Part shown: in pieces, positions 2,759 through 15,269 of the stretch
Layout: each line of letters begins with the position of its first letter
Position numbering within the stretch: the stretch's first letter is position 1
DNA from: a virus
Lineage: Duplodnaviria > Heunggongvirae > Uroviricota > Caudoviricetes
Reading direction: 5' to 3' (one strand)
Virus record (IMG/VR): IMGVR_UViG_2703718829_000001
DNA: 15,311 nucleotides
Translations under genes and position numbers: made by a program
The notes under the pieces: generated by a model
The model's input: only the letters and a program-made list of their open reading frames with translations
Databases searched by the model: none
What the model was told of the DNA's origin: nothing

Positions 2759-3130
2759 TTAATTATTGTAGTTTTGGAAGCCAGTAAGATCGCAAAATGA
2801 ATCAGTGTCATGTGCTGGGGAACGATGCTCTGCTTCGTCGGAGAAAATGTTGGATACCGGAGATTCCACTTTAACTTCCGGTGCTTCTTCAACATCTGAC
2901 TTAACTTCTTCGACCACTGGTTCAACTGCTGGAGATTCTTCTTTTGTTTCTTCAATGACGATCTCAGGTTCTTTCATTGCTTCAACCAGAGACGGATCAA
3001 CTTCGTCGAATACCACTTTATCATCTGCGGTATATTTGTCTATAATGAAAAAATGGTCAGAAATATAGCTAACGTCGCCAGCATATTCTAACAAAAAAGC
3101 GCCCACCAGAGGCGCTTTTGTTTTATCCAT
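2759..3130 (-). CDS. Highly acidic hypothetical protein (Glu/Asp/Pro/Val-rich C-terminal half); start codon uncertain
   Basis: ORF ends with TAA at 2759-2761. Candidate starts are TTG at 3160 (overlaps the upstream gene by 38 nt, no Shine-Dalgarno), ATG at 3130 (Shine-Dalgarno-like GGTGGA but no spacer) and ATG at 2977 (72 aa). The terminator hairpin at 3099-3115 lies inside the two longer versions, so the real protein may be the short form. Translation is strongly acidic (EEPEIVIEETKEESPAVEPVVEEVKSDVEEAPEVKVE...). Confidence 0.4.
   Translation of the reverse strand: MDKTKAPLVGAFLLEYAGDVSYISDHFFIIDKYTADDKVVFDEVDPSLVEAMKEPEIVIEETKEESPAVEPVVEEVKSDVEEAPEVKVESPVSNIFSDEAEHRSPAHDTDSFCDLTGFQNYNN
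3093..3116 (-). terminator. Intrinsic terminator downstream of the peptidase M15 gene
   Basis: On the minus strand: AGCGCC-ucuggug-GGCGCU stem-loop (3099-3116) followed by UUUUU (3093-3097), starting 7 nt after the stop at 3123. An A-run on the other side makes it formally bidirectional. Confidence 0.55.
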
Positions 3131-3476
3131 TCCACCGTGATTTTTTTGATCTGGAATCAATATGCGTAAAGGTTTTATATTTTCCTAAGCCGTATTGAGT
3201 AGGATATTTCCCATCAAGATAAGCATGAACAATATCAGGTGAGACACCCTTGATAACAATGTCAGCCGCACGGCCTCGAACGTGATAGCTGTTGGTTGCA
3301 CCGCCTACATTCTTGTTATGAGTCGGGCAACGGTTGCCACTGTTAATAATTACTGGTTTCCCGAAGTGTTCGCGTACATCCTCAAGAATCACCAGTAATT
3401 CAGCGTCGATTGTATCATAATCACATTTTCCGCATTTACATTTAAATTCCTTGCGAGAAAAATGCTTACTTAACAT
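3123..3476 (-). CDS. Peptidase M15 family protein (zinc D-Ala-D-Ala carboxypeptidase-like); putative endolysin or cell-wall hydrolase
   Basis: 117-aa ORF with ATG at 3476 preceded by TAAGGGGGTAAT. The translation FSRKEFKCKCGKC...GKPVIINSGNRCPTHNKNVGGATNSYHVRGRAADIV matches the small peptidase M15 (YcbK/DUF882-like) pattern SG.R....N...GG...S.H..G.A.D. Confidence 0.75.
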   Translation of the reverse strand: MLSKHFSRKEFKCKCGKCDYDTIDAELLVILEDVREHFGKPVIINSGNRCPTHNKNVGGATNSYHVRGRAADIVIKGVSPDIVHAYLDGKYPTQYGLGKYKTFTHIDSRSKKSRWNG

Positions 3477-4745: not shown

Positions 4746-5024
4746 TTATTTTTGTTTGAGTATGTCGAGAACTTGGTCAAATTTGGCGTCCATCGCAACC
4801 ACTTTCTTTTCTATACCGTGAAGGGTTTGTTCCATGCGATAAACTCTCTCGGCGATCTGGTCATGGTTACTTTGCATTGTTTCAAACTTCTGATTAAACA
4901 ATGCATCATTGGACTCTAATTTCGACAATCTATTTTCTGTGGCTAATTGATTTCGGTGGAGTCTCCAAAGCCCACCACAAATTAAGGCGATAACACCGAT
5001 ACCGCCATATATAATTTCAGTCAT
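4746..5024 (-). CDS. Small membrane protein: N-terminal transmembrane helix plus coiled coil (92 aa)
   Basis: ATG at 5024 with a GGGGGCG Shine-Dalgarno. The N-terminus (IIYGGIGVIALICGGLW) is hydrophobic, followed by a charged heptad-like segment. Topology resembles an i-spanin, holin/antiholin or superinfection-exclusion protein; function is not assignable from sequence. Confidence 0.7.
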   Translation of the reverse strand: MTEIIYGGIGVIALICGGLWRLHRNQLATENRLSKLESNDALFNQKFETMQSNHDQIAERVYRMEQTLHGIEKKVVAMDAKFDQVLDILKQK

Positions 5025-5127: not shown

Positions 5128-8100
5128 TTAAGAAACAGAAATACCAGTCGCGGCTTTCTTAGTAACAATTACAGAAAGATCGCTGATCCATGTGCTGGGA
5201 GTCCAGTTGTTGATTGCGCTTGAACTTACTTCAAAAGTTAGCGTAACTGGTCCGTGTCCGGCTGGCATATCAATAACAGCACTATACAATCCAGTCTGTC
5301 TACCATATGCACGGTTATATAATTCAGCACCGTTCTTGCGAACAATCAAGCGACAGTTATCATAGTAAGTATTGTTATTCGAGCCTTCACGCGCATTAAG
5401 ACCACCAAAGCTAATAGCCGGAACGATAATCTGACGATCAAACGGGTGATCATCTTCAATTCGAACAGTGATTGTACCTTGCGGATAACCGGGATAGCCC
5501 AATGATGGGTTTTCGTCCCAATGTGGGAATCGACGACCAATAGCTTTCACGAAGTCACCACGCACCTGATTAGCATCAAGCATACCCAAAATGCGGCAAC
5601 TTGAATTAATCGTTACGTTGTTCATTTCGCCGGAATCAGCCACCAAATGACCACGAATATTAGCGTGTCTAAAATGACAAGTGCCATCTTTGCCGATATA
5701 CCATCCATCGTTACCATTCCAGTTATAAGACTGGATATAGTTACCAATTTTAGCATTATCGATAGAGCCATCAATGATATGACCTGTTCCGATCTGTGCG
5801 TGTTGGATGTGAGCGCCGTTAATCTGGGCTGTGCCGATTTTAGCCGTGGTGATACTAGCATCACTAATCTGGGCTGTGCCAATTGCAGCATTACGAATCA
5901 TCGCATTATCGAGATAAACTTTGTTATCTTCGATACCAAACGGGCATACTTCCGATCCGTTCTGTGGAGCTACCGCGATTTTATCAGCCGTAAAGATGAT
6001 TCTCGTCGGTTGCGCCGGATCATTGGTTGCGCTCATATGAATACCAGCCACGCGACCATCTGCATTAACTGCCAGATTATATTTGCTGTTAATGGTTCCC
6101 TTCAAAGCATCGATCTTAACGTCAGCTTCCTGATTCACACCAGCAATCTTGCCATCCATTTCTACCCGAACTTGGTCGATCTTACTTGCGCTTGCTGCCT
6201 CACTGGTAGCAATTGCTTGTTTCAGGGTAGTAGCAGATGCGCTAACTTCATTGGTGATATCGCCTTTCAGTTCAGCCTTAACCTGATCAATCTTAGTGGA
6301 GCTGGCTTGCTCACTGGTAGCAATCAGACTCTTAAGGGTATCGGCTGAGGCTTGGACCGTCTTTCCGGTTTCGGTAGTGATTTGCTTATGCATTGCATCA
6401 ATCTTAGCATCGGCATTAGCGCCAGCTTGAGCAATAGCATCCGCGATGGTTTCATCTAAGCGATCTTGTAAACCAATCAGGTCTTCCAGTGCTTCTTTGT
6501 CCTGATCGTCCCAACTAATGGTAGATTTCATTTGCATGAAATACGGTTCAGACCAAACAGCATCATCCATACCGAAAATATCGTAGTGAGCACCACGGAT
6601 ATAATAATCACCGTCAGCCAAATCAAAGGAAGTATGACTAACGCTATTGGTAGTCACTGCCCTTGCATCTGAGAAAGTGTTATCGGTTGCATACTGGATG
6701 ATTGACCCTGCATAGTCATGTTCTACGTCATCCGCCCAGCTAACAAACGCAGTATTAAAGCCACCACGCGCACTAAAACCTTTCATCGGCTTATGTTGTG
6801 GGTTAATAGCCACTAAACGCGCTGGGGCGCTCTCTGAGTTGTTATAGCCCTTGACTGATACTTCTACCGTCAATTCACGGGAAAGGCCGTTAAACTGGTT
6901 CATATCAAGCGTATAGGTCCATGATTCAGGATCGCGGGTACGGTACTGAATAGACTTACCAGCCTTGTTAGTTACCTTGATAATGTATGCTTCAAACAGG
7001 TCACTAAACTTGTTAGTTTCACCGTTGATAACCACATCTAATTGTTGCTGATTTTCCCATTCGATAATCAGATCATTGCCTTCGAAAGTACCAGGTGAAC
7101 TACCCTGATTTTTGATGCGGATCACTGGAGTAGGCAGTTCATAGGTAACTTCTGGATTCTGGTTAACCAGTTCCACCCATTCGGAACGAGCAATAATACC
7201 GAAAGCACAAACGCGATAATCGTAGGAGCGATCTTTTGCCAGTGCATTGATATTGAAAATTTGCTGTGAAGTCTGTCCCAGCTTAATCCAGTTAGGTGAT
7301 CCACTCACACGATAATCAATCTGGAAACCGTAGCGGTTAAAATCTTCCGGTGCGTCCCATGTCAAAGTTACGTTTTTACCGTGGATTGTCTCACCAGTTG
7401 CCTTAATTCTGAAATTAGTCGGTTTCTGTACTGTCATTGAATCCGGTAAACCGGTAGGTCTATTGTCTGGAGTCGCCGCATAGTTCAGGTCAGTATAAAC
7501 CTGAGAATTATATTCTGTGGCGGTGATAGTCATCATCCCAGCAATACCAGAATCAATCGAGCGATCAATTGCAGTAATGCGCCAAAGTGAATTATTCAGT
7601 TTCAATTCATCATAGGTAACGCTAATAACATCCCACACTTCGGCAGTGAATGCGTCAGTAGTCATGAAGCTGATAACCTGAGTGATACGAGATTTATTTC
7701 GCTCAATGCTCGCGAGTTTATCAATCTGGGCTTTAGACTTAACAAAACGATATTCAATATCTTTAGCGATAATTCGACCATCTTGACGAATAGTAGCATC
7801 GTTTTCAGCATCAGCCGGATAACGTAGCATTTGCTCGGAATAGTCAATTGATGGTTCTTGATACATCGCGTTAATGGTATTGAAATAACCGTTAGTGCCA
7901 CCTGTTTTCAGTGATACTTTACCCATCATAATATTGTCTTCATTGAAGGTATGCTTAACAATATCAGGAGCATCCAGTTTCAGGGTAATTCTTCCGAAGG
8001 ATTCGAACATTACCCCGCCGAAAGTCTGCATAAGGCTAGTCAAGTTCTCTTTAAAGCTGGCGTTCGGATCACATGCACCGTTTGAATGCAAATCCATCTG

Positions 8101-8904
8101 GCGTACTTGCTTACGTACTTTCAGGAATGAATCAACGTTAATGTTTTCAATTGGTACTGATAGACCATATTTTTCATTTGTTAGGTAATGGAAAATCTGG
8201 TCCACGCCGTTAGTGCTAGCCTCAATAGCATTGGTTTCGAGGTTACGGATTTTTAAGCCCATAACATCGACCGCTACCTGGCTATTAGGCTGGAGAATAT
8301 CAACACCAGCAGCCAAAGATTTGTCATCACGACGTAAAACAATACACATGGTCGCAATGCCGTTACCCTGATACCGATCATCCCAATCAGCGCCCAAATG
8401 ATGTTTAGCAAGATCTAATGCAGTGTTAGGATTTTTACCCGTGCGAAACTCGACTTCTAACACTTTGCGATATTCGTCTTTAATGTTTCCTTTATCGAGA
8501 ATACCATCACGAATTGTCATATTCTGACTAATGAGAACGTTTTTATTATCGATGTGCAGTGCTTTAAAGTGATCGATCTCACCTTCGGCAATAGCAAAAA
8601 TTTGTACCAGTTTGTTATTTTCACGCTGTGAAATTGCTTTGTAAACGCAGATTGCACCAGTTCGGGTAGTACCGAAAAGAACGGGTAATACTGTCTTAGG
8701 ATCGTTTGATGTTCCTAGTGTCACCGCATTATCCGGGCTTTGTACTTTCGGTGTTTTTGGTGCGCCTACAGTGGAAGCAATCAAGGTCATTGCACCAGCA
8801 GCCATACCGATAGCGACTGCGGTCATAACAGAAAATGTTGCAGCAGCAGCCATCCCAGCAGACGCACCAGCAATAACCGCGCCTACCAATACTTCAAATC
8901 CCAT
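5128..8904 (-). CDS. Central tail fibre / tip attachment protein J-like (host specificity protein) with a gpI-like N-terminal segment
   Basis: 1258-aa ORF with ATG at 8904 and a GGGGGTG Shine-Dalgarno. The N-terminal ~100 aa are a Gly/Ala-rich hydrophobic stretch followed by APKTPKVQSPDN...VLPVLFGTTRTG, resembling the C-terminal half of lambda tail assembly protein I as recalled. The C-terminal ~120 aa (…DDHPFDRQIIVPAISF…DMPAGHGPVTLTFEV…KKAATGISVS) closely resemble the C-terminus of lambda gpJ as recalled. Internal coiled-coil and IGTAQI-type repeats are present. Confidence 0.88.
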   Translation of the reverse strand: MGFEVLVGAVIAGASAGMAAAATFSVMTAVAIGMAAGAMTLIASTVGAPKTPKVQSPDNAVTLGTSNDPKTVLPVLFGTTRTGAICVYKAISQRENNKLVQIFAIAEGEIDHFKALHIDNKNVLISQNMTIRDGILDKGNIKDEYRKVLEVEFRTGKNPNTALDLAKHHLGADWDDRYQGNGIATMCIVLRRDDKSLAAGVDILQPNSQVAVDVMGLKIRNLETNAIEASTNGVDQIFHYLTNEKYGLSVPIENINVDSFLKVRKQVRQMDLHSNGACDPNASFKENLTSLMQTFGGVMFESFGRITLKLDAPDIVKHTFNEDNIMMGKVSLKTGGTNGYFNTINAMYQEPSIDYSEQMLRYPADAENDATIRQDGRIIAKDIEYRFVKSKAQIDKLASIERNKSRITQVISFMTTDAFTAEVWDVISVTYDELKLNNSLWRITAIDRSIDSGIAGMMTITATEYNSQVYTDLNYAATPDNRPTGLPDSMTVQKPTNFRIKATGETIHGKNVTLTWDAPEDFNRYGFQIDYRVSGSPNWIKLGQTSQQIFNINALAKDRSYDYRVCAFGIIARSEWVELVNQNPEVTYELPTPVIRIKNQGSSPGTFEGNDLIIEWENQQQLDVVINGETNKFSDLFEAYIIKVTNKAGKSIQYRTRDPESWTYTLDMNQFNGLSRELTVEVSVKGYNNSESAPARLVAINPQHKPMKGFSARGGFNTAFVSWADDVEHDYAGSIIQYATDNTFSDARAVTTNSVSHTSFDLADGDYYIRGAHYDIFGMDDAVWSEPYFMQMKSTISWDDQDKEALEDLIGLQDRLDETIADAIAQAGANADAKIDAMHKQITTETGKTVQASADTLKSLIATSEQASSTKIDQVKAELKGDITNEVSASATTLKQAIATSEAASASKIDQVRVEMDGKIAGVNQEADVKIDALKGTINSKYNLAVNADGRVAGIHMSATNDPAQPTRIIFTADKIAVAPQNGSEVCPFGIEDNKVYLDNAMIRNAAIGTAQISDASITTAKIGTAQINGAHIQHAQIGTGHIIDGSIDNAKIGNYIQSYNWNGNDGWYIGKDGTCHFRHANIRGHLVADSGEMNNVTINSSCRILGMLDANQVRGDFVKAIGRRFPHWDENPSLGYPGYPQGTITVRIEDDHPFDRQIIVPAISFGGLNAREGSNNNTYYDNCRLIVRKNGAELYNRAYGRQTGLYSAVIDMPAGHGPVTLTFEVSSSAINNWTPSTWISDLSVIVTKKAATGISVS
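5819..5888. repeat. Short periodic repeat inside the fibre gene (TAATCTGGGCTGTGCC(G/A)ATT, two copies about 48 nt apart)
   Basis: Near-identical 20-mers at 5819-5838 and 5867-5886. They encode the repeated (A)QI(G/S)(T/D)A-type peptide units (IGTAQI...) in the fibre shaft region. Confidence 0.45.
6171..6350. repeat. Degenerate ~105-nt tandem repeat (two copies) inside the fibre gene
   Basis: The blocks at ~6171-6240 and ~6276-6350 share the core CTCACTGGTAGCAAT and flanking similarity. The protein shows a matching 35-aa repeat (ASADTLKSLIATSEQASSTKIDQVKAELKGDI / ASATTLKQAIATSEAASASKIDQVRVEMDGKI). Confidence 0.5.
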
Positions 8905-9323
8905 TATTCACCCCCGAATCTATAAACTTGTTCATAGTCAATGTCTGAAACAGGAATGGTCATCCAGATACCATCTTCTTCAACGAGGCCATAACCGGAA
9001 TAATGAGGAACTACGGAATAATATTTGCGGTTTCCTAATTTGTGGGCTGTGACCAGTAAGTCGCCGTCCTGTAAGTCATCAGTGACTAATTTGAAATGTT
9101 TCTTAATTGGTTGAAGGATATTTGAATACCCGCTTAATTCTTTGCAGATTTTCAAGCCTTCTTCTTTAGTTGAATATTTTTTATAAAGAGAATTATATAG
9201 GTCAGTACCAGCGAGAATATCGATGATCTTACATGCAATGAGATTGCAATCATTCTCGCCTTGAACGAACTCCTGACCTATTAAAGAATTGATATAATCG
9301 GTGATAAGCCTAGTTTTTAGCAT
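8904..9323 (-). CDS. Minor tail protein, gpK-like with NlpC/P60-type motif (about 140 aa)
   Basis: Start chosen at ATG 9323 (MLKTRL...) with a GGAGGT Shine-Dalgarno 6 nt upstream. The longer ORF-track version (start 9479) would overlap the upstream gene by 110 nt. NDCNLIACKII ... DGDLLV ... H motifs resemble the C-terminal NlpC/P60 half of lambda gpK as recalled. The stop overlaps the fibre ATG (TAATG). Confidence 0.6.
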   Translation of the reverse strand: MLKTRLITDYINSLIGQEFVQGENDCNLIACKIIDILAGTDLYNSLYKKYSTKEEGLKICKELSGYSNILQPIKKHFKLVTDDLQDGDLLVTAHKLGNRKYYSVVPHYSGYGLVEEDGIWMTIPVSDIDYEQVYRFGGE

Positions 9324-9369
9324 GTTGAATACCTCCATGCAGTTATTTACTAGGCTTAGGGAGAAGGGA

Positions 9370-13066: not shown

Positions 13067-13417
13067 TTACCCCGTTTGTGCGCTTCTGAGTTTCTCAAGC
13101 AAAGATGGATCGAACATGCTCAATGTTGCAGCTTTACGTTCTTCTTCTTTCTTGCGTGCAAGTTCTTCCAGTTCTTCTTTAGTTTTAAAGAGTTTTTCTT
13201 CTCTAATTAATTGGAATTGGCTAGGCTTGAGTTTACGTGCAGTTTCACGAGTCATTCCTTGCGACGTCATATACATGGAATATTGCAACATCGCATTCTG
13301 CATATCATGAAACGCGGGGCTTTGTGGTTCTAAGTAGGTGTCGAAAATGTATAATTTCCAAAACAGAGTGATTGGCATATTATCCATTTCATCTTTACTA
13401 AGCCCCGATCTCATCAT
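13067..13417 (-). CDS. Tail assembly chaperone, gpT-like second ORF (possibly expressed as a G-T fusion by -1 frameshift)
   Basis: 116-aa ORF between the G-like ORF and the tape measure gene, with no convincing Shine-Dalgarno before its ATG ATG at 13417. Its frame is -1 relative to the G-like ORF and open over the last ~15 nt of that ORF. C-terminal charged helix (KTKEELEELARKKEEERK). Confidence 0.55.
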   Translation of the reverse strand: MMRSGLSKDEMDNMPITLFWKLYIFDTYLEPQSPAFHDMQNAMLQYSMYMTSQGMTRETARKLKPSQFQLIREEKLFKTKEELEELARKKEEERKAATLSMFDPSLLEKLRSAQTG

Positions 13418-13446: not shown

Positions 13447-13755
13447 TTACTTTACCTCGTTTTCAATTACTGCCGGATCTTGCATCAATGATGCTTGAGC
13501 AACCAAACCGATTAATTCACTTCGAACGTTAGTATACAGTGCCTTAACTTGTTCCATAGATTCAAATACTGGCTTGCCGTCTTCATCTTCAATACAACGA
13601 AGAATAGAACGTTCATCACGGTCTTCTTTATCAGTATTGAAAACATGTTCATTAAATTCTTTTACTGACATAGGGCGAGCATAGAAAGTGAATCCACCGA
13701 TGGTCAAAGATTCGCGTTTCGGAGAGAGTGCGGCTAACATTTCGTTAATATTCAT
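13447..13755 (-). CDS. Tail assembly chaperone, gpG-like (102 aa)
   Basis: ATG at 13755 with a strong AGAGGAAA Shine-Dalgarno. Small acidic protein immediately after the tube gene and its terminator, the canonical position of the G chaperone. Confidence 0.6.
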   Translation of the reverse strand: MNINEMLAALSPKRESLTIGGFTFYARPMSVKEFNEHVFNTDKEDRDERSILRCIEDEDGKPVFESMEQVKALYTNVRSELIGLVAQASLMQDPAVIENEVK

Positions 13756-13837: not shown

Positions 13838-14308
13838 TTAGAGTTTCTGGAAAACAGCTTGTTTAACCGGAGCACCATCTACTACAAAGGTGAAGGTACG
13901 GCCTACTACAGCATCCTCACCACCAGTCATGGTAGTTTTAGACAGGAAGCCGTTATAAGCGATATGTACACCAGATTTTTTCGTAGCATCGATGTAGTAA
14001 GCAATTTTAAGCTGTACGCGCTTACCGTCTTCGGTTGCTTTAATCAGTTTTTCGTGTACTTCGTTACCCGGCATGTAGTTGATCGAAAGTTCGATATCCG
14101 GTACAGACATACGACCAACCAGCTTACGGTTATAAGCACCAGAGAAGTTAGGAACATCGATCGTAGAACGTTCTACACCAGTTTCCGGGAACGCTGCGCA
14201 TTCTGGGATTTCCAGATAGGTTTCAGCATCAAGGTCTTTATTGCTTACGTCTTCTTGCAGAAACAGACCAACGAGGCCACCAGAGAAAATATCAAATTTA
14301 GTAGTCAT
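13838..14308 (-). CDS. Major tail tube protein (gpV-like tube domain, no Ig-like C-terminal extension)
   Basis: 156-aa ORF with ATG at 14308 and an AAGGAAAAG Shine-Dalgarno. It lies upstream of the chaperone pair and tape measure gene and is followed by a strong terminator. Segments NYMPGNEV / KRVQLKIAYY / VGRTFTFVVDG resemble the lambda gpV tube domain as recalled. Confidence 0.75.
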   Translation of the reverse strand: MTTKFDIFSGGLVGLFLQEDVSNKDLDAETYLEIPECAAFPETGVERSTIDVPNFSGAYNRKLVGRMSVPDIELSINYMPGNEVHEKLIKATEDGKRVQLKIAYYIDATKKSGVHIAYNGFLSKTTMTGGEDAVVGRTFTFVVDGAPVKQAVFQKL

Positions 14309-14362: not shown

Positions 14363-14665
14363 TTAGCGGTTGCTCAAACGTCTATAACGAAGATGAGCGA
14401 CCCCCCTATTTGTGCTAACGGTAATTACCGCCCCTTGCGGTGCAATACAAGAATGAATCTGTCCCCAATCATGACCCTTATGACTTCCAGACACACAAAA
14501 GCCATGCAAAAGCAATTCTGAGTCACCACCGCCACCACCAGAAGAACTAGCACCAAATGAAACCGTACCGAAAGCGTCGGCTGTCCAACCGTTAGGAATA
14601 TCAAACCATCCCTGATTAGCTTTACCGGCTTTATTGTCTAAAACGCCATACACCCAATATCCCAT
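14363..14665 (-). CDS. Glycine-rich small protein, paralog 3 of 3 (100 aa), function unknown
   Basis: ATG at 14665 with an AGGAG Shine-Dalgarno 9 nt upstream; the start overlaps the stop of paralog 2. Shares MGYWV, WFDIPNGW, a poly-Gly run and a basic/aromatic C-terminus with its two neighbours. Confidence 0.7.
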   Translation of the reverse strand: MGYWVYGVLDNKAGKANQGWFDIPNGWTADAFGTVSFGASSSGGGGGDSELLLHGFCVSGSHKGHDWGQIHSCIAPQGAVITVSTNRGVAHLRYRRLSNR

Positions 14666-14970
14666 TAATGCATTCTCCTAAATTGGAAGTGGTTTAAACT
14701 TCCTTTACCAATGCTAAAACTGACAGTAGCACCAACACCAACTAAAGAACTAGCTCCCCAACTTCCGGCATTACCAGCGTGATGACCTGATTCGAGAGTA
14801 CCGTTTACATATAATTCGGCGTCCAAGTCACCTCCACCGCCAACGGCTTCGGCATGAACAGACACAATACCGCATGAATCCGTCACCCAACCATTAGGGA
14901 TACCAAACCAGCCGCCATTAGCATAAATGCTAATAGCATTAGCCATTCTTCCAGCAACCCAACCAGCCAT
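14665..14970 (-). CDS. Glycine-rich small protein, paralog 2 of 3 (101 aa), function unknown
   Basis: ATG at 14970 with a GGAG Shine-Dalgarno 8 nt upstream; 2 nt after the stop of paralog 1. Motifs MAGWV, WFGIPNGW, GGGG. Confidence 0.7.
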   Translation of the reverse strand: MAGWVAGRMANAISIYANGGWFGIPNGWVTDSCGIVSVHAEAVGGGGDLDAELYVNGTLESGHHAGNAGSWGASSLVGVGATVSFSIGKGSLNHFQFRRMH

Positions 14971-14972
14971 AA

Positions 14973-15269
14973 TTAAAACTCCATAAATTTAAAGTATTCA
15001 ATACCACCGACACCCCCATGACCAAAGGTGACAGTACATCCAGCAGGAACAAACGCATTAACCGTAAATCCCCAATCCCCACCACCACGACGACGCGCGG
15101 CGACCATACCGTCAACGGAAATATGCATATCGCCCCAACCATCACGAGCGGTATGCCGCAAAACGGCAACACCAGCACGACCGGGTACATATCCATTAGG
15201 AATATCAAAAACATGCCATTTTACAGCATCTATTTTAGTGCCTTGTTCATTACTTACCCAATAGCCCAT
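14973..15269 (-). CDS. Glycine-rich small protein, paralog 1 of 3 (98 aa), function unknown
   Basis: ATG at 15269 with an AAGGA Shine-Dalgarno 6 nt upstream. Motifs MGYWV, FDIPNGY, RRRGGGDWG. The most divergent of the three. Confidence 0.65.
   Translation of the reverse strand: MGYWVSNEQGTKIDAVKWHVFDIPNGYVPGRAGVAVLRHTARDGWGDMHISVDGMVAARRRGGGDWGFTVNAFVPAGCTVTFGHGGVGGIEYFKFMEF

Follow-up and report, generated by a model that had tools for sequence, protein, structure and literature searches.

The gene considered here is a single intact open reading frame (ORF) at 5128..8904 on the minus strand of a 15,311-nt stretch of viral DNA (IMG/VR record IMGVR_UViG_2703718829_000001; hereafter, the window). 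In an uncharacterised E. coli prophage, it very probably specifies the large subunit of a two-piece baseplate hub of siphovirus type, which extends distally as the central tail fibre; this reading is given a probability of about 85%. Siphovirus hubs are built from one chain (T5), two chains (the hub protein and megatron of the gene transfer agent RcGTA) or three chains (lambda L, I and J) (PMC13243795, PMC10038345). The chain of 1258 amino acids (aa) starts with about 47 uncharged, Gly/Ala-rich residues, followed by a plug with β-strands, the remaining hub domains and three fibronectin type III (FNIII) domains. In the distal part, a helical segment is followed by a Phage_Tail_Tip domain, a β-rich stalk and, at the end, a receptor-binding domain of gpJ type. 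The first hub domain would be supplied by a separate DUF2163 protein encoded two genes upstream.

Translation begins at an ATG whose A is also the last A of the TAA stop codon of the upstream DUF6950 gene (...GGGGGTGAATAATGGGA...), and a Shine–Dalgarno-like run, GGGGGTGA, is found slightly 5′ of this ATG; the ORF is translationally coupled to the DUF6950 gene. The overlap leaves no room for a separate I gene between the two, in agreement with a preliminary description of this DNA made from the sequence alone. In the RefSeq records inspected, the ORF is one coding sequence (CDS), named “phage tail tip (domain-containing) protein”. Its translation is stop-free in all three alleles examined, and the first 70 residues are identical in two of them. 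The preliminary description had also considered that a sequencing frameshift might split the ORF into two genes. No split was found, the ORF having at least 80% of its length in 51 of the 55 complete E. coli genomes that carry it; as the intact single-CDS ORF recurs in independent complete genomes, a frameshift is ruled out. The chance that the long ORF is an artefact, either of this kind or through a wrong start joining a short upstream gene to a fibre gene, is negligible. Nothing specific speaks for it apart from its having been raised beforehand, whereas the uninterrupted ORF is annotated with the same start in independent complete genomes at 83–99% DNA identity, the N-terminal module stays in frame in relatives of 39–52% identity (Citrobacter, metagenomes, phage DCP80), and the stop/start overlap and the Shine–Dalgarno-like run favour the first ATG.

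The N-terminal module (residues 1–95) corresponds to a part of lambda gpI that is known structurally. Residues 101–223 of gpI form two hydrophobic helices (H1/H2), a plug (159–175) and strands augmenting the gpJ sheets; the plug is located in the tube lumen, below the tape-measure C-termini. Binding to LamB releases the plug, and entry of the helices into the outer membrane has been proposed (PMC11101478, PMC10721106, PMC12617516). In the present protein, Glu at position 4 is followed by no charged residue until Lys50. Residues 5–49 are uncharged and Ala/Gly-rich, like gpI 99–157, with KD19 hydropathy of up to 1.88. Residues 1–47 are kept in relatives of 44–86% identity and are taken as the counterpart of gpI H1/H2 and of the megatron iris/penetration domain. 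A plug-like motif, APKTPKVQSPDN, and β-strands, VLPVLFGTTRTG, come next; their lambda gpI equivalents are APKARTPRIQTTDN at 156–169 and VLPVLYGEMRVG at 189–200.

Pfam is unable to test a resemblance to the C-terminal half of gpI (gpI-C), since its model PF06805 (Lambda_tail_I) spans gpI 14–97, the ubiquitin-like (Ubl) domain, alone and there is no gpI-C model; pairwise, shuffle, profile–profile and PDB-wide profile comparisons were used instead. BLASTP aligned residues 48–107 with gpI 156–223 at 35% identity (E 2e-6). A Smith–Waterman comparison of residues 45–110 with gpI, the segment being chosen to leave out the hydrophobic stretch, scored 67 against 22.6 ± 4.3 for shuffled sequences (z = 10.3; 0 of 2000 shuffles reached 67). 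With hhalign, a five-sequence N-terminal alignment matched the gpI-C alignment with a probability of 95.4% (E 1.8e-8); the gpI-C profile is of little diversity, as the gpI search gave close homologues alone (at least 69% identity). In a comparison of a 132-position N-terminal profile with all PDB sequences, lambda gpI was the top match (E 2.4e-5, profile 6–95 to gpI 119–212) and T5 pb3 the second (E 2.4e-4, profile 71–121 to pb3 262–313). A larger, 88-sequence family profile matched lambda gpI at E 8.7e-8 (profile 31–118 to gpI 109–212) and an F2-pyocin gpI-like protein at E 2e-6. Judged by these sequence comparisons, residues ~6–95 are homologous to the C-terminal half of lambda gpI, as had been suggested for the first ~100 residues.

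It is extremely improbable that this resemblance reflects shared Gly/Ala-rich composition and a short chance or convergent motif instead of homology. The hydrophobic part is of low complexity, a single-sequence phmmer search against the PDB connected the N-terminus with gpI at only E 0.018, and a curated test is precluded by the missing Pfam model. The pairwise signal, however, comes from the non-hydrophobic part, the significance grows when profiles are used, and the F2-pyocin protein is matched too. Moreover, the hydrophobic stretch, plug motif and strand motif come in the same order in both proteins, and the strand motif is common to pb3 at a structurally equivalent place. The Ubl domain of gpI, said earlier to be missing, was indeed not detected: PF06805 matched neither the 1258-aa protein nor the tail-module ORFs tested, while lambda gpI itself, used as a control, matched at E 1e-28. 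An APKTPK...VLPVLFG motif was considered as a gpJ N-terminus and rejected (z = 0.45 against gpJ 1–80); residues 85–150 run on weakly into gpJ 14–64 (z = 4.1).

The hub body is closest to T5 pb3. With a seven-sequence profile, pb3 was matched over three collinear stretches (E 4e-20); in the first, residues 73–129 align with pb3 263–320 (VLPVVYG...AEGEIDxF and FIPVVYG...AEGEIDGF, respectively); the LVQIFAIAEGEIDHF motif extends the strand motif, as in pb3 263–320. The plug tip of pb3 is at 233–236 (PMC10038345), and this match lies directly after it. The 88-sequence profile gave E 1.2e-85 for pb3, 1e-64 for the T1 J-like protein, 1e-61 for the F2-pyocin fibre and 8e-49 for gpJ. Its positions 133–842 align to gpJ 40–1036, and from position 95 it matches pb3 264–881 contiguously, across the gpI/gpJ junction. 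Since positions 31–118 of the same profile correspond to gpI 109–212 and those from 133 to gpJ 40–1036, gpI-C and gpJ are matched side by side, in this order, by a single profile.

An AlphaFold2 (AF2) model of residues 1–800 had a mean predicted local distance difference test (pLDDT) score of 86. A Foldseek search of the PDB with this model retrieved pb3 of DT57C (E 2e-35) and of T5 (E 7e-34), then lambda gpJ (8k35_A, E 3e-24; a further match, 1e-23), followed by the hub proteins of JBD30, Chi and T1. The FNIII region gave Foldseek and hidden Markov model (HMM) matches to FNIII tandems and to the FNIII regions of pb3 and gpJ. For residues ~96–800, a fold like that of T5 pb3 and lambda gpJ (baseplate hub and FNIII) is thus predicted. 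There is also a weak Pfam Phage-tail_3 (PF13550) match at residues 285–447 (E 7e-4). At the level of pairwise comparison, BLASTP against lambda J gave no match in the body, the similarity being confined to the last ~190 residues. The NCBIfam model NF049904 (lambda_TipJ) scored 213.5 bits against a cut-off of 1950, over model positions 974–1163 only, which falls short of full-length lambda J equivalence, and the Pfam families FNIII-A_GpJ, Ig_J and Ig_J_second were not matched in the 1258-aa protein. The “J-like body” of the preliminary description stands in so far as profile and fold match gpJ; as far as its sequence tells, the body is a distant hub homologue, nearest to pb3 and beyond the reach of BLASTP in lambda. 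A precise domain map (gate module, hub, FNIII domains, fibre, receptor domain) is now possible for the protein annotated in RefSeq as “phage tail tip”.

Beyond the FNIII domains, a segment that looks α-helical and coiled-coil-like takes the position of the gpJ helical segment before the tail-tip domain. It contains an internal duplication of ~37 aa, the 28-aa cores of which (852–879, ASADTLKSLIATSEQASSTKIDQVKAEL; 889–916, ASATTLKQAIATSEAASASKIDQVRVEM) are identical at 19 of 28 positions. The PDB sequence matches of the following Phage_Tail_Tip region are the T1 J-like protein and other J-like tips. The stalk, rich in AQI/AKI pentapeptide-like repeats, aligns to gpJ ~947–1000 and leads to the receptor-binding domain Ig_GpJ_C; the order of the Pfam domains equals that in lambda J. 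BLASTP found 41% identity to lambda J over residues 1073–1257 (E 3e-34), and BLASTP and phmmer alignments to lambda J and to A8 gpJ begin at residue 1068–1073. The likeness of the C-terminus to the gpJ receptor-binding domain, previously placed in the last ~120 residues, was borne out by the Pfam match (E 2.2e-35) and in fact spans the last ~190.

The best PDB match of the C-terminus was “A8 gpJ 713” (9wca; E 9e-51), lambda gpJ coming after it (E 2.4e-34). Identity over the last ~185 residues is 50–51% to A8 and 41–43% to lambda, and over the receptor-binding domain alone 52.5% and 45.7%, respectively. The best phage J proteins (VT1-Sakai, Stx-phage type) are ~53% identical in the receptor domain. 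A8 carries, on lambda J, a naturally occurring J C-terminus from an E. coli prophage, and it delivers DNA via OmpC and not LamB (PMC11338833). A8 and lambda are 54% identical to each other; because they use different porins, family membership or identity at about 54% does not fix the receptor. The LamB-type receptor predicted earlier is not supported, the nearest characterised domain being that of the OmpC-using A8 (50–52%, against 41–46% for lambda). The receptor may reasonably be guessed to be a trimeric porin, OmpC being a better candidate than LamB. Contact with LamB has been described as involving loops L1–L4 (PMC11101478).

Among the prophage alleles compared, the receptor-binding domain is the most divergent region. 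The allele of strain OkiPb01713 is 97–100% identical per 100-residue block over the first ~1100 residues (100% in 7 of 11 blocks) and 60–66% identical over the last ~160. The differences concentrate in four short loop-like segments and include insertions and deletions. This second receptor-domain type is common to strains OkiPb01713 and 266917_2, so that at least two types exist among E. coli prophages; the divergence fits a determinant of host range. The alleles are natural variants of a gpJ-type domain and may help to retarget lambda-based delivery particles, as with A8 and 1A2.

When the N-terminal profile was run exhaustively (HMMER) against 1.84 billion representative proteins, 516 clusters matched at E ≤ 1e-3. 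Among the best 150 of these, 95 are at least 600 aa long (up to 2324 aa), and in all 95 the module match ends by residue 175; in only two others (P0218, P0238) does the match lie well back from the N-terminus of a short protein, and both lack a Ubl domain. Phage-tail_3, fn3 or Phage_Tail_Tip domains occur in the long members sampled. The exhaustive search was needed to see the family, a word-indexed search with residues 1–450 having found just 8 proteins, none as long as the query. The common state is the unsplit one, and “fusion” is a lambda-centred reading of it: of the gpI–gpJ fusion announced in the preliminary description, the collinear arrangement of gpI-C and gpJ in one chain stands, as a common form and not an unusual one.

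According to a paper published in 2006, TAPI–TAPJ fusions occur in some prophages, the TAPI-C domain lying behind a Gly-rich linker (Iyer, Burroughs, Aravind; PMC1779556). Its authors proposed that the JAB domain of gpK/TAPK clips the Ubl domain off TAPI (PMC1779556). As in those proteins, I is joined to J in a prophage here, with the C-domain behind a Gly-rich region; unlike them, the present protein has the TAPI-C part only, with no Ubl domain, by which the paper defines TAPI, and no JAB partner. That the Ubl and JAB domains are both missing agrees with the notion of a functional pair. The gene is an ordinary further example of a common, previously described layout, and current understanding is unchanged by the findings on it.

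A literal reading, namely a recent fusion of a lambda-type I to a lambda-type J giving a LamB-binding fibre, is unlikely. The gpI-C and gpJ receptor-domain similarities that it calls on are real, and the host, E. coli, has LamB. On the other hand, the body is not lambda-like in sequence, as the BLASTP and lambda_TipJ results indicate, the flanking genes are of DUF2163 and DUF6950 type and not L and K, the unsplit form is widespread in distant relatives, and the receptor domain is nearer to that of A8 than to that of lambda. The separate I gene of lambda, with the module behind a Ubl domain, looks like a special case. We tentatively propose, at somewhat less than even odds, that lambda I arose by fission of an ancestral unsplit hub gene, the gate/membrane-insertion module being separated on gaining a Ubl domain removed by JAB. 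If this were true, the E. coli prophage would be a naturally minimal version, with no Ubl or JAB domain, a receptor domain of lambda type and a host amenable to genetics. Such a prophage could serve to test directly the outer-membrane insertion of cis-tethered helices and to learn what the Ubl and JAB domains add.

The module brings gpI-C, the part of T5 pb3 just past the plug and the N-termini of several hundred Phage-tail_3-type hubs into one sequence family, and lends support to seeing siphovirus hubs as a single protein divided at different points. The RcGTA and R4C megatrons begin with a hydrophobic iris/penetration domain of ~45 residues (residues 1–46 and 1–45, respectively), which acts as a gate for the tube and has been suggested to pierce the outer membrane (PMC7296036, PMC10276861); its likeness to the module family is limited to position and character.

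If the solved lambda, T5 and RcGTA/R4C tips are taken as a guide, three copies of the large hub protein would close the tail tube with their N-terminal modules, restraining the tape-measure C-termini and the DNA. The C-terminal domains would then bind a trimeric outer-membrane protein, the leading candidate being OmpC. On binding, the fibre would bend, the hub domains would rotate and the plug would be let go; the hydrophobic N-termini might drop into or onto the outer membrane and open a channel. Trimerisation, gating, release on receptor binding and membrane insertion are all suggested by those structures.

In comparison with lambda (8IYK, 8XCG, 9E7M), the protein is collinear with gpI 109–212 followed by gpJ 40–1132, has the hub, FNIII, helical, Phage_Tail_Tip, stalk and Ig_GpJ_C parts in the order of gpJ, and is 41–46% identical in the receptor-binding domain. 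It differs in being one polypeptide instead of two, in lacking the gpI Ubl N-domain and, in the K-position gene, the JAB domain, and in a hub body recognisable by profile or fold only. The gpL counterpart, a DUF2163-family protein, is without the four Cys that hold the iron–sulfur (Fe-S) cluster in lambda. With RcGTA (g13 and the g15 megatron) and R4C it shares a two-piece hub encoded as a DUF2163/PF09931 protein, a small gene and a large protein whose first ~45 residues are hydrophobic; in the megatron these gate the tube, with proposed entry into the outer membrane (PMC7296036, PMC10276861). However, its distal part is a lambda-type fibre with a receptor domain, whereas the megatron has a fibre-binding domain carrying separate fibres. 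In contrast to RcGTA, the small gene is DUF6950 and not a recognised NlpC/P60 peptidase, and the hub protein has 2 Cys and no Fe-S site.

T5/DT57C pb3 (7ZHJ, 8HQZ) is the best match of the body in both sequence and fold, and shares the strand motif IPVVYG...AEGEIDGF, which in pb3 follows the plug that anchors in the outer membrane. Nevertheless, pb3 is a one-piece hub including the first hub domain, and the present protein starts at about pb3 residue 260 (match from ~261–264). The pb3 plug is a refolding β-hairpin, not Gly/Ala-rich helices, and the pb3 chain stops behind its second FNIII domain, with pb4 and pb5 as separate fibre and receptor-binding proteins. The closest receptor-binding domains, those of the A8 gpJ chimera (9WCA/9WCB) and the VT1-Sakai/Stx J proteins, are carried on true lambda-type J; the identity is too low for transfer of the receptor, and the four allele-variable loop-like segments differ too.

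Several points weigh against the assignment of the gene as a hub and fibre subunit acting in this way. Analogy underlies all that is proposed on trimer formation, gating, membrane insertion and the receptor. The N-terminal 61 residues appear disordered in the AF2 model (pLDDT below 50) and so are not confidently modelled. The Phage-tail_3 match is under the gathering score (19.9 against 23 bits), and no peptidase assignment could be established for the DUF6950 neighbour. None of the RcGTA/R4C megatron chains is among the PDB matches listed for three profiles, so the link to the megatrons is one of architecture and the DUF2163 hub protein only. Finally, as some prophage copies carry insertion sequence (IS) elements, the present copy may not make particles.

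The enterobacterial host foreseen earlier is confirmed, the element being an E. coli chromosomal prophage: the gene is chromosomal in 55 of 5426 complete E. coli genomes, 51 of which cover at least 80% of it at 83–99% identity. Megablast of the gene against 50,697 phage records gave no DNA match, nor did a comparison of the whole window with 72,556 plasmids; the element is known as a chromosomal prophage only. In strain L3Cip3 (98.8% identity), the gene is in a prophage beside a truncated hicB and ydcR, encoding a large serine recombinase, terminase, portal and capsid; the truncated hicB antitoxin gene suggests integration into hicB. The nearest protein in a deposited phage is that of Escherichia phage DCP80 (38.7% identity over residues 29–1119), which has the same gene order and a different C-terminus. 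More distant relatives are found in marine Vibrio siphoviruses of ~100 kb.

It is rather unlikely that the gene, although as described, belongs to a defective prophage or tailocin-like remnant and no longer acts in infection. An IS3 element breaks a tail-fibre gene in L3Cip3 and an IS1 element the hub-fibre gene itself in strain 14EC017, cultured phages give no DNA-level match, and relatives in protein databases are mostly fragments. Against this, the tail module is uninterrupted in the window, where an endolysin and a recombinase are also present; the related prophage has terminase, portal and capsid genes, and divergence focused on the receptor domain suggests continuing selection on host range.

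The siphovirus tail module is encoded on the minus strand of the window (Table 1), with the distal tail protein (Dit), DUF2163 hub, DUF6950 and large hub genes in this order. The DUF2163 protein also has a PHROG tail protein match (E 2e-27), and RefSeq names an identical protein “DUF2163 domain-containing”. It is regarded as the counterpart of lambda gpL and RcGTA g13 and taken as the hub domain I (HDI) part of the hub. With only 2 Cys, it is unable to hold the four-Cys iron–sulfur cluster of lambda gpL and the RcGTA/R4C hubs. No PDB sequence match was found for it.

In position, the DUF6950 gene corresponds to lambda K and RcGTA g14. Its earlier description as “K-like” needs correcting: the product is a DUF6950 protein in which Pfam found no JAB domain of gpK, and its similarity to NlpC/P60 is only faint. 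Lambda K touches the DUF6950 model at no better than E 0.067. Neither NCBIfam nor the PDB gave a sequence match. Cys31 (GxNDCN), His99 and a Gly–Asp pair are invariant in four relatives (from E. coli, DCP80 and Vibrio phage), a sequence pattern suggestive of a JAB-less peptidase of the papain or NlpC/P60 kind. A single-sequence AF2 model had a pLDDT of 38.9 and was discarded.

Table 1. Features of the hub-fibre gene and of other ORFs in the window, with the basis of each assignment. HDII–HDIV, hub domains II–IV.
Feature	Position	Strand	Basis
Residues 1–47, uncharged Ala/Gly-rich hydrophobic stretch	8764..8904	minus	Composition and hydropathy compared with gpI 99–157; profile alignment from gpI 119
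Residues 48–95, plug-like motif and β-strands, putative counterpart of gpI ~156–212	8620..8763	minus	BLASTP, shuffle test, hhalign, PDB profile
Residues 96–485, predicted baseplate hub domains (HDII–HDIV by analogy with pb3 and gpJ)	7450..8619	minus	PDB profiles; AF2 (pLDDT mostly >85); Foldseek
Residues 486–800, three FNIII-like β-sandwich domains (~490–585, 590–702, 705–795)	6505..7449	minus	AF2 secondary structure; Foldseek/HMM; Pfam fn3 weak
Residues 801–931, α-helical coiled-coil-like segment	6112..6504	minus	Translation; PHROG tail-fibre families span region
Residues 852–916, ~37-aa duplication	6157-6351	minus	
Residues 932–1028, Phage_Tail_Tip (PF09327)	5821..6111	minus	Pfam E 5.1e-19, above gathering score
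Residues 1029–1122, repeat-rich stalk	5539..5820	minus	Faint pentapeptide-repeat match
Residues 1123–1258, gpJ-type receptor-binding domain Ig_GpJ_C (PF12421)	5131..5538	minus	Pfam match over whole model, above gathering score
Allele comparison	5131-5700		Compared with L005:1115-1700 and L007:1345-1900
DUF6950 gene, 139 aa from RefSeq start (alternative ATG at 9338)	8904..9323	minus	Pfam PF22262 E 3e-12
DUF2163 / phiJL001 gp84 N-terminal attachment-domain hub protein, 217 aa	9370..10023	minus	PF09931 E 1e-5, 26.2 bits (cut-off 26)
Distal tail protein, 186 aa	10023..10583	minus	PHROG 1302 E 2e-16; weak pb9 B domain match
Tape measure, 809 aa	10634..13063	minus	PHROG tape-measure families, best E 8e-65
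Chaperone-like small ORFs (two)	13447-13755, 13067-13417	minus	Weak: Phage_TAC_13 E 2e-4, Phage_tail_T E 6e-4
Tail tube	13838-14308	minus	
Recombinase, at presumed prophage end	203-1642	plus	
Endonuclease-like ORF, at presumed prophage end	1716-2714	minus	
Endolysin, at presumed prophage end	3123-3476	minus	

The two chaperone-like ORFs are parted by a short gap. Three paralogous ORFs of 98–101 aa lie in tandem upstream of the tail tube gene (14363-15269, minus strand); they are 26–41% identical and share a W-V...F-IPNG-...G motif; no Pfam or PHROG family matched them, and in a related prophage they come after two tail-fibre-domain genes. Directly downstream of the fibre gene, where lambda has lom, a 92-aa ORF (4746-5024, minus strand) has an N-terminal hydrophobic segment, a coiled-coil-like remainder and a weak DUF7201 match.

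The window appears to include a prophage end (compare the L3Cip3 locus, L004:11485-14503). The recombinase there is of the large serine type (Recombinase and Zn-ribbon), the endolysin is a Peptidase_M15, and the endonuclease-like ORF belongs to PHROG 681 and is a GIY-YIG nuclease in RefSeq. The element inside the hub-fibre gene of strain 14EC017 (NZ_CP024134.1) is IS1A; that of L3Cip3 is of the IS3 family and lies between two tail-fibre-domain CDSs (L004:30179-35036), interrupting the tail-fibre gene.

Phage DCP80 (PQ671644.1) is labelled Straboviridae/Tevenvirinae and has a motA-like gene, yet it carries a siphovirus-type tail-tip module syntenic with the present one: tape measure, Dit, DUF2163 hub, DUF6950 and a hub-fibre protein of 1252 aa. 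Its classification or assembly may need checking. The DUF6950 copy of DCP80 (L002:8499-8915) is unannotated in the GenBank record.

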